A DNA stretch of 64,000 bases from Deltaproteobacteria bacterium (GCA_018645085.1 JABGPG010000136.1:10603-74602), one strand, 5' to 3'. Counted from the first letter of the stretch, positions 3,797 to 24,106 are shown. Notes: generated from the sequence alone by a model not told the origin. Made by a program: numbers and translations.

Positions 3797-4482
3797 ACCT
3801 GCGTGTTTTGATCATAGACGATGATGAGCGGATTGCGGAAATTCACCGACGTTACGTTGAAAAAACGGATGGTTTTGAAGTTGTTGGTATTGCCAATACT
3901 CTTGAGGATGCTCAACTGCAGTTGGATGTTCTTGAACCGGATTTGTTACTGCTTGATATTTTCTTTCCGGAAGGAAACGGATTGGAATTTCTAAAACAAA
4001 CGAGGCTCCACCGTAAACAGGTCGATGTGATTCCAATCACTGCGGCGAAAGAAGTCCATTTGTTCAATGAAGCCCTGCATGGAGGGGTTTTTGATTATAT
4101 TCTCAAACCAGTTGTTTTGTCACGTTTTCAAACCACTCTGCAGCGTTATAGACAAACAAAAAATCAGCTTTCAAATATCGATCAGCTTGATCAGCACGAC
4201 GTTGACAGAGCACTGCACGCAGGCAGCAGTGACTTGCATGAATCAGCGGAATTACCTAAAGGAATTGACGGGCTCACTTTAGAAAAGGTGCAGCAGGTCT
4301 TCAGCACCAGACAGAATTCCAGCTTAACTTCCGAAGAAGTGGCTTCACTAATTGGAGCAAGCAGAACCACTGTACGGCGTTATCTTGAATTTTTAGTTTC
4401 CCAAACTATGCTGGATGTTGATGTGAATTATGGAGGAGTTGGACGTCCGGAACGTCGTTACTTCCTGAGGAGAACTCATTAA
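3793..4482 (+). CDS. Response regulator, CitB/DcuR family
   Basis: 229 aa. N-terminal receiver domain (LIIDDDERIAEI...LLLLDIFFPEGNG) plus C-terminal HTH. Translationally coupled to the kinase. Confidence 0.8.
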   Translation: MNLRVLIIDDDERIAEIHRRYVEKTDGFEVVGIANTLEDAQLQLDVLEPDLLLLDIFFPEGNGLEFLKQTRLHRKQVDVIPITAAKEVHLFNEALHGGVFDYILKPVVLSRFQTTLQRYRQTKNQLSNIDQLDQHDVDRALHAGSSDLHESAELPKGIDGLTLEKVQQVFSTRQNSSLTSEEVASLIGASRTTVRRYLEFLVSQTMLDVDVNYGGVGRPERRYFLRRTH

Positions 4483-4616
4483 AACTGAAAGTGATTAGTC
4501 ATTTCGCGAGAATAGTGAAGTATAGCACATTAGAACTTTGTTTAAGAAAGACCGATCAAGTAGTAGTTAAAATTTCTGTAAAACCTTTAAAATATGACAG
4601 TCCTTTAAAAAGTCTG

Positions 4617-4663
4617 AAGACCAAAAATTATCATTTTGAATTGACACGGTTTTCGGTCTTTTT
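4617..4663 (+). terminator. Putative intrinsic terminator after the two-component operon
   Basis: Imperfect hairpin AAGACCAAAA...UUUUCGGUCUU followed by a UUU run, 135 nt downstream of the regulator stop. Confidence 0.3.
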
Positions 4664-4699
4664 ACAGATTCATCAAAGATAAGAATTAAGAGCTATTTT

Positions 4700-6214
4700 A
4701 TGTCCAACCCGCTTTATGAAACTCTGTTCGGAAAATACGCCGGACATTCGACCACATTCCTTTATCTGCCTGATGGAAAAACGATCAGCCATGATTCTTT
4801 TATCCGTATGGCTGGACGTTCTGCAAATGCACTCAGAGAAATGGGACTTGCTGTCGGTGACCGTGTGGCAGTACAGGTTGACAAATGTGCTGAAGCACTT
4901 GCAGTTTATGCGGCTTGTGTTCAATCCGGCCTGGTTTACCTGCCGCTTAATGCCGCCTACACACCGGCTGAAGTCTCATATTTTATTGAAGACAGCGGTG
5001 CAAAACTATTTATCTGTCAAGGCTCCAAAGAAGATGAACTTGTTGCTGTTGCCGAAAAATCTGGGGCACTGCTGGAAACATTGAATGCTGACGGTACAGG
5101 GTCATTTACTGAATTAACTCGGAATAAGGACGATACATTTAAAACCGCAGAACGTGACGGAGAGGATCTTGTGGCGCTGCTCTATACCTCAGGCACAACG
5201 GGACGTTCCAAGGGTGCGATGCTGAGTCAGAACAATTTACTTTCAAATGCTGAGACTCTAGTCGAGCTTTGGCAATTTACGGAGAGAGACGTTCTGTTGC
5301 ATGCTCTACCTATCTTTCACACCCATGGATTATTTGTAGCAACTAATGTGACACTTGCGGCAGGCGGTTCTATGATCTTCATACCGAAATTTGATTTAGA
5401 CTCGATCATCGAAAATCTTCCAAACGCAACCACGATGATGGGCGTCCCAACTTTTTATACAAGGCTTTTGAATGATTCACGCTTCAACAAAGATCTAACT
5501 CAGCACATGCGGCTTTTCGTCTCTGGAAGCGCTCCGTTGTTGGCCGAAACGCATGTTCAATTTGAAGCACGGACAGGCCACCGAATTCTTGAGCGTTACG
5601 GAATGACTGAAACAAACATGAATACCTCAAATCCATATGACGGTGAACGCCGTGCCGGAACGGTTGGTTTTCCGCTGCCGGGAATTGAAATTAAGATTAC
5701 TGACTCGAAAACCGGTGAGGCACTAGCAGATGGTGAAATTGGTGAGATTGAAGTACGAGGACCAAATGTATTCAGCGGTTATTGGCAAATGCCGGAAAAA
5801 ACCGCGGAAGAACTTCGTAAGGATGGTTTCTTTATCACTGGTGATCTAGGTACGATTGACAGCGACGGTTACCTCCACATTTCCGGACGCAACAAAGACG
5901 TGATCATTTCCGGCGGATATAATATCTACCCCAAAGAAATTGAAATGTTACTCGATGAGCAACCCGGTATTATGGAAAGTGCGGTGATAGGTTTAGCACA
6001 TCCGGATTTGGGAGAAGCAGTTGCCGGTATTTTGGTGGCTGAAAAAGGTGAGACGCCGGATCTTGACGAGTTAGCGAAAGCAATCAGCGCATCTCTTGCG
6101 AAGTACAAACAACCCCGAAAACTACTAGTCATCCCTGAACTTCCGAGAAATACTATGGCTAAAGTACAGAAAAATATCTTAAGGCAAGAGTATAAAGATG
6201 TATTCAAGCAGTGA
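4700..6214 (+). CDS. matB: Malonyl-CoA synthetase (AMP-forming acyl-CoA ligase, MatB type)
   Basis: 504 aa, near-colinear with rhizobial MatB, including LYTSGTTGRSKGAML, HALPIFHTHGLFVATNVTL, ERYGMTETNMNTSNPYDG, GDLG...DGY and ISGGYNIYPKEIE motifs. Confidence 0.8.
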   Translation: MSNPLYETLFGKYAGHSTTFLYLPDGKTISHDSFIRMAGRSANALREMGLAVGDRVAVQVDKCAEALAVYAACVQSGLVYLPLNAAYTPAEVSYFIEDSGAKLFICQGSKEDELVAVAEKSGALLETLNADGTGSFTELTRNKDDTFKTAERDGEDLVALLYTSGTTGRSKGAMLSQNNLLSNAETLVELWQFTERDVLLHALPIFHTHGLFVATNVTLAAGGSMIFIPKFDLDSIIENLPNATTMMGVPTFYTRLLNDSRFNKDLTQHMRLFVSGSAPLLAETHVQFEARTGHRILERYGMTETNMNTSNPYDGERRAGTVGFPLPGIEIKITDSKTGEALADGEIGEIEVRGPNVFSGYWQMPEKTAEELRKDGFFITGDLGTIDSDGYLHISGRNKDVIISGGYNIYPKEIEMLLDEQPGIMESAVIGLAHPDLGEAVAGILVAEKGETPDLDELAKAISASLAKYKQPRKLLVIPELPRNTMAKVQKNILRQEYKDVFKQ

Positions 6215-6472
6215 GATTCATGCTCAAATCATATTCACTATTATGCGGCATAAAATTCTCAGTCCAGACTTAGAGGTTTTCTGGACAAACTGTTGATAAT
6301 TTGACGCTATTACTAACATAACAGACAACATCCTCATTGCCTCTTAATAACCATAAAAACCGCACATTCTTTTGTGCAGGACACACGTATCTTACAGGAA
6401 GTAAAAAATAACGACTTCATTTGCAGATGTATTTTTAAGGGCTGATAACTACTGAGAGTTTCCAGATAATGG

Positions 6473-6501
6473 TTGACATTCCTGAAAAAATGATTGATAA
6501 T
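6473..6501 (+). promoter_or_regulatory. Candidate sigma-70 promoter (TTGACA-17-GATAAT) for the XRE regulator gene
   Basis: Consensus -35 hexamer at 6473-6478, 17 nt spacer, -10 GATAAT at 6496-6501. Located about 130 nt upstream of the ATG at 6632. Confidence 0.35.
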
Positions 6502-6631
6502 TCAAGGCATATTATTAAATATGCGGTACTTCAGCTTAGTAAAAAATCGCATCAGCTAGAAAGAAAAGCAGTAGAAGCTAAAAATATAATTCTTGTGCTG
6601 CAAACAAAAGAATAACGAAAAAGAGTGTGAA

Positions 6632-7066
6632 ATGGAATTTGGCGAACAAATGACACAATGGCGGGAGGAATCCGGTTTAACTCGCAAAGAGTTTGCCCGA
6701 AAACTCAGTGTTTCACTGACTGCTGTAAAAAATTGGGAAACTGGACACTCAACTCCTAAATTGACGAAATACAGTGAGATTGCGAAAGTATTAGCGATTG
6801 ATGTGCGGCAAATGGGTTTGGATAATGACCTGGATCTGGAACGTATCGGTGATCGTATCAAATATGCACGTTTACTGAGAGGCATGTCGATAGAAGCATT
6901 TGCCTACGAACATGGCTTTGCAATTCAAACTGTAAAAAGCTGGGAATCGCATGCTGCAGAGGTCACAGAAGCCTCTTTGGAGCGTATTTCGCGTGCGTTG
7001 AAAATTCCTTCTCCATTCTTTGAAATGAAGAATGATCCTCACCAGGAATTAGCCGACCTCAAATAA
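6632..7066 (+). CDS. XRE-family transcriptional regulator with two tandem HTH_3 domains
   Basis: Two repeats of the helix-turn-helix cro/C1 signature (LTRKEFARKLSVSLTAVKNWETG and MSIEAFAYEHGFAIQTVKSWE). Start placed at MEFGEQ rather than the upstream Cys-rich ATG. Confidence 0.6.
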   Translation: MEFGEQMTQWREESGLTRKEFARKLSVSLTAVKNWETGHSTPKLTKYSEIAKVLAIDVRQMGLDNDLDLERIGDRIKYARLLRGMSIEAFAYEHGFAIQTVKSWESHAAEVTEASLERISRALKIPSPFFEMKNDPHQELADLK

Positions 7067-7100
7067 TCAACGGGTTTCCATTTTTTGGCAAACCCGGGAT

Positions 7101-8360
7101 TTAGTTAATAGTCCTTGTTAAAGCAGCTTTAAATACTGGATTATTACTGTCCATCTTCAGGGCGGTTTCGTAGTGTTTTCTTGCTTGCGAAATTTCCCCA
7201 GCTGCTTCAAAAGCTAAACCAAGGTTGTGCTCATCCTCTGCTGTACGTTCGTTTAAAGCTAGCAGAAAAGCAACAGCCTCCTGGTAGGCATTCCCCCTGA
7301 TCAAATTAACCGCAACACTGTTACCATCCTGTACAAGTAATTCTGCCCTTTCTTGATAAGGACTGATTTGTTTGACGTATTGTCGTGCAACTTGTCGTCC
7401 GAGTCTGATTTTCAGCTCCAGTGTAGTTTGCGGAACCTTTGCATTATTTCTCAGGTTAAATCCTCTGGCAAAATATTCAGTTGGGTTTGTAAAGGATAAT
7501 CCTGCACGGTCAATTATTGAAAGAAGTGACTCAGAAGAATCTTCATCAGACTGATAATTATTTATAATTGAGTCCTTTATCTTTAGCGGTAAATGCGAAG
7601 TTACGACTGAACCACCCCATTTCCGGACAAAGTAAGTTCGAAAACTTTGTGAAGGAACTACTTCACTGCCGTCATTTTTTCGGAGCAGTGAAAATTCAAC
7701 TTCCAGCGCGGCTATTTGCTCCACATAAGGTGTTGCTATCACAAATCCTGTTCCGGATGATTCTGCACCCATTGAAACAACTCCTGCCAGCAAAGATTGT
7801 TCGAGCGTGGCGCCTTTGTTTTTCACATTTGTAAAATATGAAAGACCCTCCTCTGATTCAATAATAATTTCCGCATATTTAACTTTTCCATGTAGGACTG
7901 CAATTTCGGACTGATCTGGAAGTGCTACGCTAAATCCTGCTTCCTTTCCGGTTGTGTTTATCAACTGATATGGTGACTGAAGTGAAAGTTCATGTAGCAA
8001 AGCGGCTCTCAGCAAATCAGCTGTGAGGTGCCCCTGTTCATTTGTTGAATTGAATTCGGAAATGGCTGGTTTTAATAATTTTTCTGTTCCGCTAAAAATT
8101 CGCTTGGATTCGGATGTTGCGTCACTTGGAAATTTGATTTGTCCTGATACAGTTTGAAAATTGCCAACCTCAATGTAGTTTATATTTTCAACAATCTGCA
8201 GCGGTGGACGCTCAATTTGAAAACTGACTTTTGGTGCACAGGCCGTGAATAAAAATGCAGAAAGGCAGAAAAGTAGAAAAACGCTGAGCTTTACTTCAGC
8301 GAAGGCTTTCCGTATTTCGGAAGAGGATACGAAATAAATATTTGAGAAGATAAGTTTCAT
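7101..8360 (-). CDS. Lipoprotein, paralog 1 of a tandem family; C-terminal TPR-like motif
   Basis: Signal peptide with lipobox (LFTAC). The C-terminus (NLGLAFEAAGEISQARKHYETALKMD) is TPR-like. It shares the internal block ISPYQERAELLVQDG with the two upstream paralogs. Confidence 0.6.
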   Translation of the reverse strand: MKLIFSNIYFVSSSEIRKAFAEVKLSVFLLFCLSAFLFTACAPKVSFQIERPPLQIVENINYIEVGNFQTVSGQIKFPSDATSESKRIFSGTEKLLKPAISEFNSTNEQGHLTADLLRAALLHELSLQSPYQLINTTGKEAGFSVALPDQSEIAVLHGKVKYAEIIIESEEGLSYFTNVKNKGATLEQSLLAGVVSMGAESSGTGFVIATPYVEQIAALEVEFSLLRKNDGSEVVPSQSFRTYFVRKWGGSVVTSHLPLKIKDSIINNYQSDEDSSESLLSIIDRAGLSFTNPTEYFARGFNLRNNAKVPQTTLELKIRLGRQVARQYVKQISPYQERAELLVQDGNSVAVNLIRGNAYQEAVAFLLALNERTAEDEHNLGLAFEAAGEISQARKHYETALKMDSNNPVFKAALTRTIN

Positions 8361-8401
8361 TAAATCATTCTTAGAATAATATACATAAAATCGGCAGCAG
8401 A

Positions 8402-9553
8402 CTAACGTGATTCAAGCTGTCGCTGTAGTTGAGGGTGTTCACGCCGAAGTCTTTCAATGCGTCCAAGTCCCTGGGCAAAAAGCAGGTTTTCCGGTTCAGC
8501 CTGCCAGGCCTCTCTGTAAGTCGTCTGGGCAAGTCCAAAATCTCCAATTGCTTCAAAGCAAAGTCCAAGGTTATAAAGATCATTTGGATCAGGATTTTCA
8601 GCAGTTGCCTGCTGCAGTTGAGCTATTGCTAAATCGTAAGCACCGGCTTCAATCAAAATTTTCGCATTTGGGAAGCTGCCCTCAGCAACAGGGTAGCTGA
8701 CAACTTTTTCTGTGACGGCAACTCGACGGACAAATCCGCTCGCAATTGAAAGTGCCATATCCGCAATTATTTGCTCAAAAGAAGGTAGGACATCTGCAGA
8801 GCTTTCAATGCTGTCAGTCATTGAGCTTTTCGATGGGGACAAAACTGAGGTGAAACTGTCAGCAATTTGCTGAAAACTTTCTCCGCTCCTTCCGCCAATC
8901 CGTTGAGAGTAAGTTCTAGTCTCAAAAGTTGTTGCGACCACTTCAGTCGGCAGCAAACGGGTCATCTTAATCTCAAGTCCTAATGTCCCGCTCGTTGATT
9001 TGTAAGGCCACCAAACTACTTGATCAACTGTCAGATTAAGGCCGAGACTGTTTCTGGAACGAGGAGGCCGAAAATATTCCAGACTTTCTTTGCTTAAGTC
9101 AACTCCATCTGTACGTTCAATTTCAAGCCAGAGTTTACCATTGATAACTGCGTCAACATTTTTAGTTTTGTAACCGCGTACTGAAACCAACTGTTGAAGC
9201 GCCTCGTCATTTGCCAGCTCCTCAAATTCATCACTAAAAATAACCTTGAAGTACGGAGTTGCGGTTAATAAATTTATCACCCTTGCTCTTACTGAACGGC
9301 TGATGGATTTTTGCTGTTCCTCATTCAGTAAAACAGGATGAGTTTGCCAGACGCCGTTTCGTTCGGTTTTATATTTCAGCATTATCCGGCCTATCTCAAA
9401 TCCTCCTACTGCTACATTTTTTATTTTCCGCGTATTAATTTCTGCAGGTGAGCGGACAGTAAGTGTCGCTTTAGCACAACCTGAAATTAAAATCACGGAG
9501 ATCAGCAATATCAACAATAAATGATTAAAGATATAGTTATTCAAAAATTTCAT
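8402..9553 (-). CDS. Lipoprotein, paralog 2 of the tandem family; C-terminal TPR-like motif
   Basis: Lipobox LISGC and C-terminal YNLGLCFEAIGDFGLAQTTYREA. Homologous to the flanking paralogs. KNVAVGGFEIG resembles the KxxAVxPF segment of LpoB/CsgG-like lipoproteins (tentative). Confidence 0.6.
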   Translation of the reverse strand: MKFLNNYIFNHLLLILLISVILISGCAKATLTVRSPAEINTRKIKNVAVGGFEIGRIMLKYKTERNGVWQTHPVLLNEEQQKSISRSVRARVINLLTATPYFKVIFSDEFEELANDEALQQLVSVRGYKTKNVDAVINGKLWLEIERTDGVDLSKESLEYFRPPRSRNSLGLNLTVDQVVWWPYKSTSGTLGLEIKMTRLLPTEVVATTFETRTYSQRIGGRSGESFQQIADSFTSVLSPSKSSMTDSIESSADVLPSFEQIIADMALSIASGFVRRVAVTEKVVSYPVAEGSFPNAKILIEAGAYDLAIAQLQQATAENPDPNDLYNLGLCFEAIGDFGLAQTTYREAWQAEPENLLFAQGLGRIERLRREHPQLQRQLESR

Positions 9554-9565
9554 TTTTGTCTTTTT

Positions 9566-10864
9566 CTATTTTTGAGTTTGTCTAGCCAATGTTTTAGTTT
9601 CAGCAAGATAACGCCGGATCCGGCCAACTCCTTGTGCATAAAGTTTTATGCCCGGACTTTTCTCGAGTGCAGTAATGTAAAATCTACGTGCATCCTCGTA
9701 ATCTTCCGGGCTTAAAGCTCCTGCTTCATAAGCCAAACCTAAATTATACCAATCTTGAGATTCTCTTTTTTCAGCCGGAATTGCCTCGATGAGCTTCCGG
9801 ACTTTTTGTGATTTTCCTTCTTTGAGCAAATTCCCTGCTTTTGCTCTACCGCCTTCTGCAACCTCGGCTTCAACCATTTGCTTGTATGGAGAAATTGTGC
9901 GGATGAATGATTCCAAAGTGCGCTTCACTAATTGCTGAATCACCTTCCTTTTTTCTTTGGGAGGGAGATCGTAAATATCCGGAATGGCTAATCCTTTTGG
10001 TCCATAGAAAATTTGTTTTGGATTACTGCGTGAAGCTAAAGCAAGCTGGCGGCTAGGTATTGGGAAAATAGGAATTCTAGTGATACTGAGCAGGCTGCCT
10101 AAAGTCAGAGAAATGAGGTGGCTTTCTTTGATGTTACGGTAGGAATCTTTTTCGATAATACTGCGGCCGAAACTGGCTGAATCTGCACGTATTGCCAGAG
10201 TTTCCCTGCTTAAGCCAATCATGTTAAAACTGAAATTAGCCTGAGCAAAAAGTGAAATATTTTTGTAATCGTAAATCCGCACAACCTGGTTTTTAGGTGG
10301 AATAACGTTATTTAAACCTGCGAGCGAAAATGCGGATGAAAGTACCAGCTCCGCCGCATTACTGGCAAAAGTTCCTCTACGGCAAACATATCCACGCCAT
10401 TTATCTAAAGTAATTGCTTCATTTGTAATTGCTGCTGCTCCAGCTGAGGACAGTCTCCCGCTGATTCCACCTGTGCAGGTGGCAAGGTCAGTAAACTGTC
10501 CGTGGTCCACCTCCCCGCCGCTGATGACTTCTCCCTGAATTATCGCAACAGTTTCCTTTTCTGAATCAAACTGGCTGCCGTCTAAAGTATTCACTACACT
10601 GACTTTGAAACGTCCGAAACGATTGAGTTCATCCGCCAGTTGTTGAAGGACTTGATTTTTAATGCCAAGTTTATCATTTGTTTCATCCACCAGATCTGCG
10701 CGGATAAACACTTTTTTTACGTCACGAGGAATGGTAATTCTGGAAGGCCGCTGCACTTCAAACTGTGAAACATTAAGTCTGGTACAGGCAGAGACAAGTA
10801 TTGAGGCACACAGGCATAATAAAAGAGTAAAAGATTTCTTGGAAGATAATTTTGTTTTTTTCAT
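9566..10864 (-). CDS. Lipoprotein, paralog 3 of the tandem family; C-terminal TPR-like motif
   Basis: Lipobox LVSAC, C-terminal WYNLGLAYEAG...RFYITALEKSP and shared block ISPYKQMVEAEVAEG. There is an 8 bp gap to the upstream DUF2851 gene. Confidence 0.6.
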   Translation of the reverse strand: MKKTKLSSKKSFTLLLCLCASILVSACTRLNVSQFEVQRPSRITIPRDVKKVFIRADLVDETNDKLGIKNQVLQQLADELNRFGRFKVSVVNTLDGSQFDSEKETVAIIQGEVISGGEVDHGQFTDLATCTGGISGRLSSAGAAAITNEAITLDKWRGYVCRRGTFASNAAELVLSSAFSLAGLNNVIPPKNQVVRIYDYKNISLFAQANFSFNMIGLSRETLAIRADSASFGRSIIEKDSYRNIKESHLISLTLGSLLSITRIPIFPIPSRQLALASRSNPKQIFYGPKGLAIPDIYDLPPKEKRKVIQQLVKRTLESFIRTISPYKQMVEAEVAEGGRAKAGNLLKEGKSQKVRKLIEAIPAEKRESQDWYNLGLAYEAGALSPEDYEDARRFYITALEKSPGIKLYAQGVGRIRRYLAETKTLARQTQK

Positions 10865-10872
10865 GTCTGCAT

Positions 10873-12285
10873 TCAGCCTGCTAAAAGTCCGGGTAATTCA
10901 CAGCGTACACAACCTTGATGAAAGTTGCGGCAAAAATCATGTTGAATTTGTATCAAACCCTGCCGATTTCCAAAAGTGTTCAGCTTCAGTTTAGGTGATT
11001 TAGGCAATTCAGAAAACCATAATCGTTTTTCCATGAAACGTGTTTTGCTGTTTGATGCCTCTGCGGGTAAAATCATAAATAAGCGATAAAGCAGTTTTTC
11101 CAGTTCCGGTTCATTTTCGTATCTTGCATAGGCCAGGAAGAATGGTAAAACGGCATTTGCCCAAAGAATTATTTGACGATCCTTGCCTACAAGCTGAGAT
11201 GAGTATGTCTGCTTTGATTTCCCTAAAACAAGATGCTTCTGCCAGACTTCCCAATCCGGAGTTGAAAATAGTTTTTCAGTTTCAGACAGTGCCTGCCGCC
11301 GCAATTCTTTTTCATCTGCAAACTGACTCAGCTTACGGAACACCAGCAACCAGCGTTTGAGCAAACCCTCATTTGCTACACAGTATAAATGATGGAACAT
11401 GCCGAGCAGCCGTCTCTCCGGAGTATTTTGTGGACGGTAAGCTTGTGAAAATTTTTGGGAAACTTGAGGTTGTTCAGGAAGTTCCTGCCAGGCAGTTTTC
11501 CACTGTAGGAATTCATGGCGTACAGACGGATCAGCAATTGTATGTTCTGTGGAAAATAATCCACATGCACCAAACCAGCGTGAAAGAACGAGCGTCCGTG
11601 TTGTCCGCTGAGACTGCCTGAACAAAGGTCGGAGTTCACTAAACTGATATTGTTTTGCAAGTTCTTCAAAAACCTGGGCAAACGGTGAATAACCTAATGA
11701 TTTGAACAACAACTGAAAAAGCAATTCTTCAGAATTCTGTTCATTCCAGCGCTTTAGCAACAGCTGCATTTTCTCCTGGATTCGCTGCTCTGCAGCATGA
11801 CCAATGATTTTTTTCAGCGTTTTCGCACCATGTTCAACCGCCGTCACTCCGCAACGTCCGGGAAGTTCTCCGAAAAATTTTAAGTCCGCCCGGGCTTCCG
11901 TTTCTGAGGTAGATGGTGTTTTGTTGATAACAGAAGCTAATTCCAGCTCCGGAATTTCACAGTTATCCTCACGTTGAATTAACCGTTTTCCACTGTTGTA
12001 AAGAACGACGTGTAAAACCACGGAATTGTAGACCGGATTTTTTTCGTGTTGATGTGCATACCATCCGGAAGAATCGACATGAATTTCCACTGCACCAAAA
12101 AGCGTATGTTCACCAATTTGTAGTCGTGCTTCCTTGAAGTCAGGTCCGCTTCCGGAATTGTGCCAGCCCGCAAACTCAATTTTTACTGCCTTACCGCAAA
12201 CTGTACGTAGCTTTTCCTTTGCAAAATCCTGCTCTGCCCAGATTTGCTGGATTGCCATTTCTGGAATCGAGAGCTTGTTTAACAT
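10873..12285 (-). CDS. DUF2851 family protein
   Basis: 470 aa. The N-terminal block (WAEQDF...GKAVKIEFAGWHNSGSGPDFKEARLQIGEHTLFGAVEIHVDSSGWYAHQH) is the hallmark of DUF2851. It is the first gene of the four-gene minus-strand operon. Confidence 0.6.
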   Translation of the reverse strand: MLNKLSIPEMAIQQIWAEQDFAKEKLRTVCGKAVKIEFAGWHNSGSGPDFKEARLQIGEHTLFGAVEIHVDSSGWYAHQHEKNPVYNSVVLHVVLYNSGKRLIQREDNCEIPELELASVINKTPSTSETEARADLKFFGELPGRCGVTAVEHGAKTLKKIIGHAAEQRIQEKMQLLLKRWNEQNSEELLFQLLFKSLGYSPFAQVFEELAKQYQFSELRPLFRQSQRTTRTLVLSRWFGACGLFSTEHTIADPSVRHEFLQWKTAWQELPEQPQVSQKFSQAYRPQNTPERRLLGMFHHLYCVANEGLLKRWLLVFRKLSQFADEKELRRQALSETEKLFSTPDWEVWQKHLVLGKSKQTYSSQLVGKDRQIILWANAVLPFFLAYARYENEPELEKLLYRLFMILPAEASNSKTRFMEKRLWFSELPKSPKLKLNTFGNRQGLIQIQHDFCRNFHQGCVRCELPGLLAG

Positions 12286-12295
12286 GAACCGTTAA

Positions 12296-12324
12296 TTGAC
12301 AAGATGAGAAAAAATACGTAAAAT
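12296..12324 (+). promoter_or_regulatory. Candidate sigma-70 promoter (TTGACA-17-TAAAAT) for trpBA
   Basis: Consensus -35 at 12296-12301, 17 nt spacer, -10 TAAAAT at 12319-12324. Located about 50 nt upstream of the trpB ATG. Confidence 0.4.
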
Positions 12325-12374
12325 CTTAACTTAAATCATAAACCAGATAGTCCAAAGATTCAATAAAGTCCAAG

Positions 12375-19528: not shown

Positions 19529-20236
19529 TTACTTTTTATTAGATTCTTCTTCAGGTGCAGGCAGAGCGGCGCGTTTTTTTAATTCAAGTAATTCAACATC
19601 TAAATCTGTAGAGTCATGTTCCAACTCTTCAAATTTACTTTCCAAACTATCTTTATCAGACTCAAGGCTTATTTCCTGATATGCTTCTGCACGGGCCTGC
19701 ATATTTTCCACTTTTTCTTCCATCCTCTCAATCGTTTCCATAGTTCCTGAAGTATCTCCAAGCCCCTCCATGGTTTGATATATTTTTTCCTGAGCTTCAG
19801 CCTGTTTTTGTTTAGCAGATAAGATCCCTTTCTTACGTTTTATCTCATCTATTTTATCTTCCATAGTCTGGTAACTGTTCCGGAGGGCTTCCGCATTGTG
19901 CCGGTGCATTTCCAGTTGTTTTTCAAAATCTACGGCCCGTCTGAGGTATTCTGATTTTCTTGTCAGGGCTTCTTTTGCTAAATCATCTTTTTCATTTTGT
20001 ACCGCGAGGATTGCCTTTTTCTCCCATTTATCTGCTTCTTTATGTTCCTTTTCAGTATCGCGTTCCAAACCTTTCTGTAAGGCTAATGCCTCAGTCATCT
20101 GCTGTTTCGCTTTTCTTTTTTGAACCTCGAGATCAGCAATCATTTGCTGAAGCATTTTTCCAGGATCTTCTGCTTTGTCCAGCAAGTCATTTGCATTTGA
20201 ACGAAACAGGTTGAATAAGCGCTGTATAATTCCCAT
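19529..20236 (-). CDS. pspA: PspA/IM30 family protein (phage shock protein A-like)
   Basis: 235 aa coiled-coil protein. The N-terminus MGIIQRLFNLFRSNANDLLDKAEDPGKMLQQMIADLE matches PspA [37 protein letters not shown]. Confidence 0.8.
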   Translation of the reverse strand: MGIIQRLFNLFRSNANDLLDKAEDPGKMLQQMIADLEVQKRKAKQQMTEALALQKGLERDTEKEHKEADKWEKKAILAVQNEKDDLAKEALTRKSEYLRRAVDFEKQLEMHRHNAEALRNSYQTMEDKIDEIKRKKGILSAKQKQAEAQEKIYQTMEGLGDTSGTMETIERMEEKVENMQARAEAYQEISLESDKDSLESKFEELEHDSTDLDVELLELKKRAALPAPEEESNKK

Positions 20237-20257
20237 AAGTATTACGGATTGATGAAT

Positions 20258-21952
20258 TTAGAAAAGTTGTTTGCGTTTGTTTGAGGGCAGGATATTGAGT
20301 GCTTCACGATACTTTGCGACTGTTCTGCGAGCGACTTTTATACCGCTTTGCCGCTCAAGAATATCTGCAATCTGCAGGTCAGTATAAGGTGATTTTAAGT
20401 CTTCTTTCTGTACCATTTGCATGATCATATCTTTGATACGTTTTGAAGAAACAGCATCTCCTCTACCTTGATCGATACCACTGGTGAAGAAATATTTTAG
20501 TTCAAATATTCCCTGAGGTGTATGTACATATTTGTTAGTGGTGATTCGACTGACGGTAGACTCATGTACGTCTATATCTTCTGCAACGTCCTTTAGTACA
20601 AGCGGGCGCAAGAAGTGGATACCGTGCTCAAAGAATTTCTTTTGAAAACGCAGAATACTTTTTGTCACACGGTAAATTGTTTTTTGTCTTTGTTCGATAC
20701 TTTTGAGCAACCATTGTCCTGCTTTGACTTTTTCTAAAATGTAATCTTTGGTGAGGCTGCCGTCATCCACCATCGTACTACTCAAATCCTTATAATAATT
20801 ACTGATTCGCAACCGAGGCATACCTGCGGAGTTTAACGCGACTTTATATTCATTGTCCTTTTGATAGATGTAGACATCAGGAATTATGTAATGGTGTGAG
20901 GGGTTTGGAATAAACTCACGTCCCGGTTTTGGTTCAAGGGACATGATCAGACGATAAGACTCGATCACTTGTTCAAGGTCCTGTTTCTGCCTTCGCGCTA
21001 TTTTTTTCAGATCCTTTGATTCCAACAAAGGCATGTCATGTTTGACAATACGAGAGCATAAGTTTTCGCTTTCACCTAAAATATCCAACTGGATCAAGAG
21101 GCATTCCTGCAAACTTCTTGCGCCTACTCCATTTGGATTAAATTGTTGAATTATTCCCAGAACATATTCCACGAATGAGCAAGCTGCTATAGAAACTTCA
21201 GGTTTTTTTGGCTCTTCTTCCAGAATTTCTTCGTATTCTTCAAAGTCAACAACATCAGTCTTTTTGTTTTTTTTCTTCTGGGTTGTTTTGCTTGTTTGAA
21301 ACCGGAGGTCCAGCAAATCAGCATCAATTTCCGGAAGTTCAGGCAACTCTCCGTTTTTGACACTCTGGTTGATTTGATCGTACAAATCACGCTGTGATTC
21401 CAAAAGTTCACGTACACTAGTTACTAGAAAACCATCATCATCAATGTTGCCGATTAAGAAGGCACCAGTTCTATATTCCAGTGGAGAAAGTTCCTGCATG
21501 TCTAACTGCCAGACAAGGTGATCAGCCAGGGATTCTGTTTGTGCTGCAGTGGCCTCCAGAGAAGGGCTATCCTCGTCATCAGAAGCTATATTATAGCGTC
21601 TTTCCTGGTAACCACCGAATTGTTCGACCTGTTCTATATACTGCTGCCAGTCAATCTCATCCTGATCATTATTTTTATCTTCATTCTCACGGGCAGTTTC
21701 GAAATCTTCCGTATCTGCTACTACTTCCGGACTTTCAGGGTTTTCGGCTGTTTCAGCAGAATCGTCTGTTTTGTTGGGAAAGGTGTCCATGTCTATACCC
21801 TCCTCAAGAACTGGATTTTCGATTAGAGTTTGTTCAATTAACTCTTCCAGTTCTGTTCGTGACAATTGCAAAAGTTTGATAGCCTGCTGCAACTGTGGGG
21901 TCATGATCAGCTGCTGGCTCATCTTCATTTGCATTTTCATCTGCATTGCCAT
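20258..21952 (-). CDS. rpoN: RNA polymerase sigma-54 factor
   Basis: 564 aa with N-terminal Gln/Leu-rich region I (MTPQLQQAIKLLQLSRTELEE), core-binding domain, and C-terminal HTH and RpoN box (ARRTVAKYREALNI). Confidence 0.9.
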   Translation of the reverse strand: MAMQMKMQMKMSQQLIMTPQLQQAIKLLQLSRTELEELIEQTLIENPVLEEGIDMDTFPNKTDDSAETAENPESPEVVADTEDFETARENEDKNNDQDEIDWQQYIEQVEQFGGYQERRYNIASDDEDSPSLEATAAQTESLADHLVWQLDMQELSPLEYRTGAFLIGNIDDDGFLVTSVRELLESQRDLYDQINQSVKNGELPELPEIDADLLDLRFQTSKTTQKKKNKKTDVVDFEEYEEILEEEPKKPEVSIAACSFVEYVLGIIQQFNPNGVGARSLQECLLIQLDILGESENLCSRIVKHDMPLLESKDLKKIARRQKQDLEQVIESYRLIMSLEPKPGREFIPNPSHHYIIPDVYIYQKDNEYKVALNSAGMPRLRISNYYKDLSSTMVDDGSLTKDYILEKVKAGQWLLKSIEQRQKTIYRVTKSILRFQKKFFEHGIHFLRPLVLKDVAEDIDVHESTVSRITTNKYVHTPQGIFELKYFFTSGIDQGRGDAVSSKRIKDMIMQMVQKEDLKSPYTDLQIADILERQSGIKVARRTVAKYREALNILPSNKRKQLF

Positions 21953-22068
21953 GAATCCTCGCTATCCTAATTTCACGTTTGAGAGAAGTATTTTCAAAAG
22001 ATACTTTTTGTGGATGTTATTAATTTGCTTGCTAATAGTTTCGCTCCAAATTGAAGTAAAAGTCAAAC

Positions 22069-22797
22069 CTACATCGAGAAAGACTTGCCGAGGTAAACTT
22101 TTCGTGCCTGATCATTTTCGACCAATTCATCCGGAGTACCGCCAACCAGCAACTCTCCTTCGTTCATAATATAACCATAATCGATTATACCGAATGTTTC
22201 TCTGACATTATGGTCAGTGATCAGAATACCTATATTACGTTTCGCCAACTGCTGGACAATGGTTTGAATATCTGCGACCGCAATTGGATCAACACCTGCA
22301 AATGGTTCATCGAGCAGCATGATTGCCGGCTCCAATACCAGTGCACGGGCTATTTCTGCACGTCGACTTTCTCCTCCGGATAGAGCATAACCTTTTATTT
22401 TTCGCACGTGCTGTATACCAAGTTCATTCAGCAGTGAATCCAGACGTTCCCGTTTTTCCGTACGGCTCAACGGCAGCATTTCAAGGACTGCATTCAGGTT
22501 TTCTTCAACAGTTAGTTTTCTGAAAATGGATCGTTCCTGAGAAAGATATCCAAGTCCGGCTTTTGCACGGCGGTGCATGGGATAATTGGTAATATCCTGA
22601 CCGTCTAAAAGGATAGTTCCTTCGTCAGGACGCTGCACACCAACTATCATATAAAATGTGGTGGTTTTACCTGCTCCGTTAGGTCCAAGCAAACCAACTA
22701 CCTGACCTTGTGCTACTTCAAGTGAGATGCCTTTGACCGCATGTCTGCCCTTGTAAGACTTTTTAAGATGAGTGGCCACTAATTTACTTGTGCTCAA
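22069..22797 (-). CDS. lptB: LPS export ABC transporter ATP-binding protein LptB
   Basis: 242 aa. Walker A GPNGAGKTTTF, ABC signature LSGGESRRAEIARAL, Walker B LLDEPFAGVD. Immediately upstream of rpoN as in the conserved lptB-rpoN arrangement. Confidence 0.85.
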   Translation of the reverse strand: MSTSKLVATHLKKSYKGRHAVKGISLEVAQGQVVGLLGPNGAGKTTTFYMIVGVQRPDEGTILLDGQDITNYPMHRRAKAGLGYLSQERSIFRKLTVEENLNAVLEMLPLSRTEKRERLDSLLNELGIQHVRKIKGYALSGGESRRAEIARALVLEPAIMLLDEPFAGVDPIAVADIQTIVQQLAKRNIGILITDHNVRETFGIIDYGYIMNEGELLVGGTPDELVENDQARKVYLGKSFSM

Positions 22798-24031: not shown

Positions 24032-24106
24032 TGGGGCGTAGCCAAGTGGTAAGGCATCGGGTTTTGATCCCGTGATTCGCAGGTTCGATCCCTGCCGCCC
24101 CAGCCA
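24032..24106 (+). tRNA. tRNA-Gln (anticodon UUG), encoded CCA end
   Basis: Cloverleaf folded by hand: acceptor stem UGGGGCG/CGCCCCA, D-arm GCC-AAGUGGUAA-GGC, anticodon stem CGGG/CCCG with loop UUUUGAU (U33, UUG, A37), T-arm GCAGG-UUCGAUC-CCUGC, discriminator G, CCA. Confidence 0.8.

Follow-up and report, generated by a model that had tools for sequence, protein, structure and literature searches.

A fixed-order cassette of three paralogous lipoproteins in SAR324 and related bacteria, with DUF2851 as an upstream neighbour in the marine clade

The DNA analysed here is a stretch of 64,000 nucleotides (nt) from a Deltaproteobacteria bacterium (GCA_018645085.1, JABGPG010000136.1:10603-74602), hereafter called the window. 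On its minus strand, between positions 7101 and 12285, it carries a DUF2851 gene followed by three genes for putative lipoproteins, which we named P1, P2 and P3. Near-identical database proteins bear marine SAR324-cluster names, which places the organism in this cluster. An earlier note, made from the sequence alone, regarded the four genes as one module. As described below, the three lipoprotein genes form an old set of paralogs that is kept in the same order in SAR324 and its relatives, and DUF2851 is an operon neighbour outside this set. The features of the locus, in the direction in which the four genes are read, are as follows.

12286-12374: divergent intergenic region between DUF2851 and trpB, 89 nt, with promoter-like sites in both directions
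10873-12285, minus strand: DUF2851 gene, 470 amino acids (open reading frame (ORF) call and Pfam PF11013)
9566-10864, minus strand: P1 lipoprotein gene, first of the trio, 432 amino acids (ORF call)
8402-9553, minus strand: P2 lipoprotein gene, middle of the trio, 383 amino acids (ORF call)
7101-8360, minus strand: P3 lipoprotein gene, last of the trio, 419 amino acids (ORF call)
7071-7096: inverted repeat CGGGTTT(CC)-ATTTTTT-(GGC)AAACCCG, likely a bidirectional terminator (read from the sequence)
6593-7066, plus strand: Xre-type helix-turn-helix (HTH) gene, 157 amino acids, convergent with P3 (Pfam HTH_3, E 1.2e-17)

The ORF call reproduced the four genes of the earlier note exactly, including the spacing of 8, 12 and 41 nt between them. 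The promoter-like sites 5' of DUF2851 and trpB, at 12363-12335 on the minus strand and 12296-12324 on the plus strand, come from a consensus scan only, and the same type of scan revealed no terminator-like site at the DUF2851-P1 junction. The inverted repeat lies in the 34-nt gap where P3 (stop at 7101) and the HTH gene (stop at 7066) converge, and judging from its sequence it likely ends the operon, although the consensus terminator scan did not pick it up.

The three proteins encoded downstream of DUF2851 have the hallmarks of lipoproteins. P1 carries a signal peptide with the lipobox LVSAC (Cys27, codon at ~10784-10786), and the corresponding motifs are LISGC in P2 (Cys26, codon at ~9476-9478) and LFTAC in P3 (Cys41, codon at ~8238-8240), as had been proposed. 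The core residues VSAC, ISGC and FTAC all conform to the PROSITE PS51257 type of lipobox, and the cysteine is kept in nearly all inspected orthologs of the three families and is invariant in the family alignments A1 and A2. Cleavage of the signal peptides and membrane localisation of P1-P3 are predicted from these motifs. The residue at position +2 after the lipobox cysteine is Thr, Ser or Ala, and never Asp. The n-region of P3 is unusually long, with 24 amino acids ahead of the hydrophobic core (window 8238-8360); its first ATG is the sole in-frame ATG, GTG or TTG start, and the length of the N-terminus varies widely among P3 orthologs. A terminator-like GC-rich hairpin with a T-run is present at 8301-8282, inside the P3 signal-peptide coding stretch, and was judged to occur by chance, the region having 2 such sites versus 6.1 expected.

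Each trio protein ends in a short tetratricopeptide repeat (TPR) domain of two to three repeats, preceded by a helix-strand block. In P1 the block covers residues ~302-333 and the TPR residues ~341-405 (~9650-9844). P2 consists of an alpha/beta N-terminal domain (N-domain; residues ~27-222), a low-confidence linker (223-256), the helix-strand block (259-288) and the TPR (~295-372; ~8438-8671), and the TPR of P3 spans residues ~350-415 (~7116-7313). The motif (Y/W/H)NLGL(A/C)(F/Y)EA, noted before as TPR-like, is found in all three proteins and proved to be canonical: among 43 diverse family members D-x-Y-N-L-G-L-x-x-E-A is near-invariant and corresponds to the consensus of TPR helix A. P2 scores above the Pfam cutoffs for TPR_19 (26.0 bits, cutoff 25) and TPR_14 (23.6 bits, cutoff 23.5), TPR_2 is matched by 36 of the 43 diverse members, and the family profiles match consensus-TPR structures with E values of 3e-12 (P1) and 2.9e-37 (P2/P3). 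The structure of CTPR (1na3) superposes on a model of P2 with a root-mean-square deviation of 1.0, the paired helices being located at 295-372. Every trio gene is under purifying selection, with ratios of non-synonymous to synonymous substitution rates (dN/dS) of 0.12-0.14 for P1, 0.08-0.10 for P2, the lowest of the four genes, and 0.20-0.24 for P3, the fastest of the four.

The N-domains are less readily classified. No Pfam or NCBIfam model covers them in the window proteins, in 40 diverse relatives or in the family consensus sequences, in agreement with the earlier statement that none of the proteins matches a known family with confidence. A P2-like protein of 349 amino acids (P0400) gave a sub-threshold match to Pfam DUF6340 (E 0.004, 16.8 bits versus a cutoff of 26.4), which covers the last part of the N-domain together with the helix block and is absent in the 42 other members scanned. 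The N-domain of P1 is divergent and contains the invariant residues Cys130 and Cys161 (alignment of 28 sequences, mean column identity 77%).

The three lipoproteins had been described as a family triplicated in tandem. A BLASTP comparison among the window proteins aligned only the last 100-125 residues (E 2e-12, 8e-9 and 1e-7), and tblastn between species gave a P2-P3 alignment over about 410 residues. With family profiles, hhalign connected P2 and P3 at 98% over 328 columns and the C-terminus of P1 to P2/P3 at 97-98%, and with ortholog-enriched profiles all three pairs aligned over their full length at 99.7-99.9% (P2-P3 over 328-336 columns in the two comparisons). To exclude an effect of the shared C-terminus, the N-domains were compared alone, using reversed sequences as controls. 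This gave E values of 4.6e-7 for P2-P3 and 6.6e-5 for P1-P3, against 0.08-0.39 for the reversed controls (0.39 for P1-P3), so that the proteins do align above background, and a non-significant value of 0.025 for P1-P2. P1 and P3 also resemble each other just past the lipid anchor (SQFEVQRPS and VSFQIERPP, respectively). By these sequence comparisons, P2 and P3 are clear full-length paralogs, and P1 is a more divergent one whose N-domain relationship is only moderately supported. The shared block with the letters ISPY, mentioned in the earlier note, corresponds to the helix-strand block (259-288 in P2) and is common to all three proteins; the letters themselves occur only in P1 and P3, P2 reading VAVTEK at this place. 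One metagenomic protein of 182 amino acids (P0381) combines a P1-like N-terminus (67% identity to residues 14-116) with a middle segment that is P3-like (63% to residues 155-235), and is probably an assembly chimera of the adjacent paralogs and not a real fusion.

To delimit the family, the databases were searched exhaustively with a profile of the P2/P3 N-domain, which matched 66 cluster representatives among 1.84 billion. The distant matches comprise P2-like (29-50% identity) and P3-like (26-48% identity) proteins, and the named distant members come from Candidatus Lambdaproteobacteria and unclassified proteobacterial metagenome-assembled genomes (MAGs). The family is limited to SAR324, Lambdaproteobacteria and related unclassified MAGs. 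We then took the genomic context of five distant trio loci (L013, L014, L015, L016/17 and L018/19). In all five, a P1-like gene is followed by a P2-like and then a P3-like gene on a single strand, each gene matching its own paralog profile best, with relatives at 26-61% identity, and the gaps within the trio range from -19 to +46 nt, including 4-nt stop/start overlaps. The arrangement P1>P2>P3 is therefore seen in the window, in 7 marine SAR324 loci and in 5 diverged loci. Because the five deeply diverged loci keep P1, P2 and P3 in the same order, the duplication is ancient, and the trio consists of anciently diverged, separately conserved orthologous lineages. In other words, the tandem paralogs are real, but they are not the product of a recent triplication.

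The genes upstream of the trio vary with the distant locus and include polA, an RND efflux operon, an MMPL gene and a GST gene. In L018, a 402-amino acid ORF (5381-6589) is located immediately upstream of the trio on the same strand; it matched neither Pfam nor the hidden Markov models (HMMs) of P1, P2, P3 and DUF2851.

For the fold of the N-domain, an AlphaFold2 model of P2 based on a joint P2+P3 alignment was compared with the PDB by Foldseek. The best match was HpaA (E 6.7e-6), followed by many CsgG chains (from 5e-5) and PelC (1.4e-3), and FlgT, the Vibrio LPHT ring and the DUF330 protein XCC0632 were matched as well, all with a probability of ~1.0. CsgG, TolB_N and DUF330 are members of the same Pfam clan (PMC3173608). 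The P1 model was poor, with a mean predicted local distance difference test (pLDDT) value of 55, and its confident N-terminal part shows the strand-strand-helix-strand-hairpin order of P2. None of these likenesses is visible to sequence profiles. The CsgG model PF03783 matched neither P1-P3 nor 40 diverse relatives nor the family consensus sequences, even at E<=1-10; the LpoB, TolB_N and HpaA models matched no member at E<=1; and an N-domain profile search of the PDB sequences gave nothing relevant, the PDB sequence matches being confined to the TPR.

A possible link to CsgG is present in the Lambdaproteobacteria locus L013, where a gene for a 336-amino acid lipoprotein with a CsgG domain and a TPR (4296-5306) is located 299 nt upstream of the trio. 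The protein matches CsgG PF03783 with 25.3 bits (cutoff 20.8), has the lipobox LVAGC and is named CsgG in UniRef, and the gene is also present in L020 and L021. It has in common with the trio the first strand I-x-x-V-A-(I/V)-x-x-F-E, the helix block and the overall architecture. We regard this tie as architectural, homology not being demonstrated, and the gene is possibly an ancestral-type relative of the trio family. A metagenome scan with this protein returned two loci only, both 100% identical to the query, and a search of the PDB sequences with it gave nothing informative. The segment KNVAVGGFEIG of P2, which the earlier note had likened to LpoB and CsgG, thus finds an echo in the Foldseek matches and in this neighbour, but not at the level of sequence.

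The trio can be compared with several known systems. With CsgG it has in common the lipobox anchor, the alpha/beta domain matched by the P2 model and a first strand of the K-x-V-A-V-x-x-F type. In contrast to CsgG, which is a single homo-oligomeric subunit, it comprises three paralogs, each with a C-terminal TPR, and it lacks a sequence match, the signature of transmembrane hairpins and curli partner genes; in addition, its N-domain measures about 270 amino acids with large insertions, against roughly 210 in CsgG. HpaA (PDB 8t8d/2i9i) and PelC (PDB 5t0z/5t10), also structural matches, are likewise small alpha/beta lipoproteins anchored in the outer membrane, but the TM-scores are only 0.2-0.5 and their sequences show no similarity to the trio, whose TPR is part of the same polypeptide and which has neither pel nor flagellar genes in its vicinity. 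PelC forms a ring beneath the outer membrane and works with the TPR-containing partner PelB. Proteobacteria also contain CsgG-like/DUF799 (GNA1162)/DUF4810 operons, which encode three outer-membrane lipoproteins around a CsgG-clan fold and have no known function. Those operons combine three different families, whereas the trio is one family with a TPR in each member, and the trio gave no Pfam match to DUF799 or DUF4810. The parts are known ones, namely a lipoprotein that bears a domain similar to those of the CsgG/TolB_N clan, and a TPR. The novelty lies in a narrow, uncurated family whose three paralogs form a fixed cassette that is specific to SAR324 and relatives. We found no earlier account of these proteins in the literature on DUF2851, SAR324 lipoproteins and CsgG-like TPR lipoproteins.

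The explanation that we favour, with moderate confidence, is that P1, P2 and P3 constitute a hetero-oligomeric lipoprotein cassette, a lineage-specific scaffold anchored to the outer membrane. The real unit is the three-gene cassette without DUF2851, each protein combining the lipobox cysteine, an alpha/beta domain probably of the CsgG/TolB_N-clan type, the helix-strand block and a short TPR. The proteins would leave the cytoplasm, be lipidated and, given that their +2 residue is Thr, Ser or Ala and never Asp, end up in the inner leaflet of the outer membrane; this criterion is the Lol rule of E. coli and may not hold in SAR324. They would assemble into a hetero-oligomer of fixed stoichiometry, in which the alpha/beta domains oligomerise under the outer membrane, like the structurally similar lipoproteins CsgG, PelC, HpaA and FlgT/FlgP, and the TPR tails extend into the periplasm and dock partner proteins. 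That the three are stoichiometric subunits of one complex is suggested by the retention of three distinct lineages whose gene order is fixed, whose stop and start codons often overlap and which are under purifying selection. Hetero-oligomerisation, outer-membrane localisation and the scaffold function are what we infer from this pattern together with the lipoboxes, the +2 residue and the fold class. Several results weigh against this explanation. The P2 model is only moderate (pLDDT 67, predicted template modelling score 0.45), and its TM-scores to the Foldseek matches (0.2-0.4) are under the usual same-fold threshold. The structural check advised before thus produced CsgG/HpaA-type matches for P2, but for P1 nothing significant, only non-significant LptE and PelC. 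Furthermore, no sequence method ties the N-domains to CsgG, LpoB, TolB_N or HpaA, the N-domain of the L013 CsgG+TPR protein is not significantly related to those of the trio (hhalign E 0.018-0.6), and no conserved neighbour in the window or the distant loci hints at a substrate or pathway.

A different explanation, which we consider unlikely, is that the trio comprises three independent, co-expressed adaptor or activator lipoproteins of the Lpo kind, each using its TPR to reach its own partner in the periplasm or inner membrane, without forming a complex. In P2, the alpha/beta domain followed by the low-confidence linker (223-256) and the TPR would fit such a protein, the architecture presumably resembling that of the lineage-specific outer-membrane lipoprotein regulators LpoA, LpoB and LpoP, and the paralogs evolve at unequal rates (dN/dS of 0.24 for P3 versus 0.09 for P2). 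However, all three genes have been retained in the same order over deep divergence, with stop codons that overlap the next start, which is more typical of stoichiometric subunits, and no penicillin-binding protein or cell-wall genes are consistently adjacent.

The resemblance to CsgG could also mean that the trio is a heteromeric CsgG-like secretion channel in the outer membrane, such as a 3+3+3 nonamer, for the export of an amyloid or polymer. The Foldseek matches include both the pre-pore and the membrane forms of CsgG, a true CsgG-domain+TPR gene adjoins the trio in L013, the P2 model has long beta-hairpins at 135-199, and three paralogs would suit rings with 9- or 12-fold symmetry. Yet no member matches Pfam CsgG even at E<=1, and neither csgA/B/E/F-like nor polysaccharide genes lie beside the trio in six distinct contexts, where the neighbours are housekeeping genes of unrelated function. 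The hairpins themselves do not have the expected pattern either: conserved TDG/TSG turns interrupt the predicted long strands, and charged residues fall in both of their phases, leaving no lipid-facing stripe, and CsgG-type transmembrane hairpins in P2 were rejected on this sequence pattern. A secretion channel is therefore a very unlikely function.

This brings us to DUF2851. The first gene was correctly assigned in the earlier note: its product matches Pfam PF11013 with an E value of 4.5e-59 and 200.8 bits (cutoff 25) over profile positions 1-373 of 375. It is a full-length member with all invariant residues common to the Thermomicrobium and Bacteroidota members, and is unusual solely by its place before the trio in marine SAR324. 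Across phyla the family shows the invariant motif GPDF..A..I..G..E.H..S.W..H.H..Y..V.LHV and a C-terminal C..C..C cluster. Residues invariant between the SAR324, Thermomicrobium and Bacteroidota proteins (window, L010-L012) are G47, P48, D49, F50, E67, H69, W75, H78, H80, H92, C145, R284-P285-x-N287 and C452/C459/C462, a set that looks like a metal or catalytic site. The protein has no signal peptide and is therefore expected in the cytoplasm, and it is probably an unrelated metal-dependent enzyme there. A search of the PDB sequences found no relative; a resemblance to PD-(D/E)xK nucleases is conceivable.

It is highly improbable that DUF2851 and the three lipoproteins form one functional module of four genes, with DUF2851 acting on or with the lipoproteins. 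Such a module would be consistent with the co-orientation of the genes, the 8 nt between DUF2851 and P1, the lack of a terminator-like site there, and the conservation of the arrangement in marine SAR324, where at least 7 loci (71-91% identity) have it. A genome scan with DUF2851 as query returned only relatives at the SAR324 level, which informs on synteny and cannot test coupling: among nine SAR324 loci (71-91% identity), DUF2851 is followed by P1 in seven, but the whole region from mutS-trpA-trpB to the HTH gene is syntenic in all nine, and the adjacency therefore says little on coupling. More informative are the diverged genomes. In none of the five diverged trio loci (L013-L018) was DUF2851 found within 8 kb by a six-frame HMM search, which is sensitive enough to still detect the Thermomicrobium and Bacteroidota DUF2851 at about 1e-27. 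Conversely, no trio homologs were found near the DUF2851 genes of Thermomicrobium, Parabacteroides and Prevotella, and in Akkermansia the DUF2851 gene is flanked by a STAS-domain gene and a glutamate decarboxylase gene (PMC3861447).

A natural deletion points in the same direction. In L009, DUF2851 is reduced to an ORF of 82 amino acids (7980-8228), in which codons 1-10 are fused in frame to roughly the last 75, a loss of ~385 codons, and P1-P3 are intact. The cluster of this remnant contains 62 sequences of 73-82 amino acids, complete genes from NCBI, JGI, ENA and Tara Oceans data, and the neighbouring P1 cluster of the lineage has 197 members. Because the cluster recurs across these data sources the remnant is not an assembly artefact, and the deletion is fixed in a widespread sublineage with an intact trio. 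The remnant keeps the C-terminal C..C..C cluster, and it may persist for translational coupling, for promoter spacing or as a micro-protein. Since the deletion spares the 89-nt intergenic region, the first 10 codons and the reading frame, the sequence suggests that the trio is transcribed from the promoter before DUF2851.

Thus, because diverged genomes have the trio without DUF2851, other phyla or genera have DUF2851 without the trio, and DUF2851 has been deleted naturally, the DUF2851-trio adjacency is a feature of the marine SAR324 clade and not a functional module, contrary to the earlier proposal. Among the loci examined the adjacency was confined to marine SAR324, which is essentially the genome-specific adjacency that the note had named as the case against a module. 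In marine SAR324, DUF2851 is an upstream neighbour in the operon, outside the conserved module.

Finally, the idea that the trio proteins are accessory disk proteins of a flagellar or pilus basal body, akin to HpaA, FlgT, FlgP or PflA, is hardly credible: H. pylori HpaA is the best structural match, FlgT and the Vibrio LPHT ring are matched too, in L014 a fragment of a FlgK gene is located ~7 kb away from the trio and there is a weak, TPR-only similarity to PilW and Tgl, but the PilW/Tgl scores are far under the cutoffs and neither flagellar nor pilus genes adjoin the trio in the window, L013, L015, L016 or L018.

A better candidate than DUF2851 for a functionally linked neighbour of the cassette is the convergent Xre-HTH gene. 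Orthologs that are 80-83% identical occupy the same convergent position in L015 (9264-9758), L016 (9245-9733) and L017 (4069-4557), so in two mid-distance lineages the gene stays beside P3 although the outer flanks have changed. With 80-83% identity and a dN/dS of 0.06, the HTH protein is much better conserved than the trio (43-61%). The gene is missing beside the trio in L013, L014 and L018, which are the most distant loci, and its product may regulate the cassette specifically.

The other neighbours in the window are genes for an FAA hydrolase, a GST, a Cache sensor kinase with a DpiA-like regulator and an acyl-CoA synthetase, together with trpBA, mutS, pspA and rpoN, and apart from the Xre-HTH gene they supply no pathway clue for the trio. 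A fourth trio paralog was not found elsewhere in the window. On the minus strand, pspA (PspA/IM30), rpoN (sigma-54) and an ABC ATPase gene form a cluster (19529-22797), in which the ABC ATPase gene next to rpoN is, from its position, probably lptB. The only tRNA gene of the window, tRNA-Gln(ttg) at 24032-24106, is also the sole Rfam match in the 64 kb.

Returning to the outer-membrane scaffold that we favour, a more specific form of it, which we put forward as distinctly speculative and unlikely as it stands, is a 3:3:3 or 4:4:4 heteromeric ring beneath or in the outer membrane, whose inward TPR arms recruit a SAR324-specific export or envelope machine, possibly under the control of the Xre-HTH protein. 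To our knowledge, rings of CsgG/PelC-type lipoproteins are homomeric in every characterised system, and a trio ring, if true, would be the heteromeric version of these. For DUF2851, the present analysis removes a misleading guilt-by-association, and its function should be looked for elsewhere than in the envelope; the natural deletion shows that DUF2851 is dispensable in an abundant ocean SAR324 population. Among the uncultured bacteria of the dark ocean, SAR324 is one of the most abundant lineages, and as far as we know almost nothing has been learned about its cell envelope. The P1-P2-P3 trio is a concrete candidate for a lineage-specific structure of this envelope, and a useful marker of the clade.

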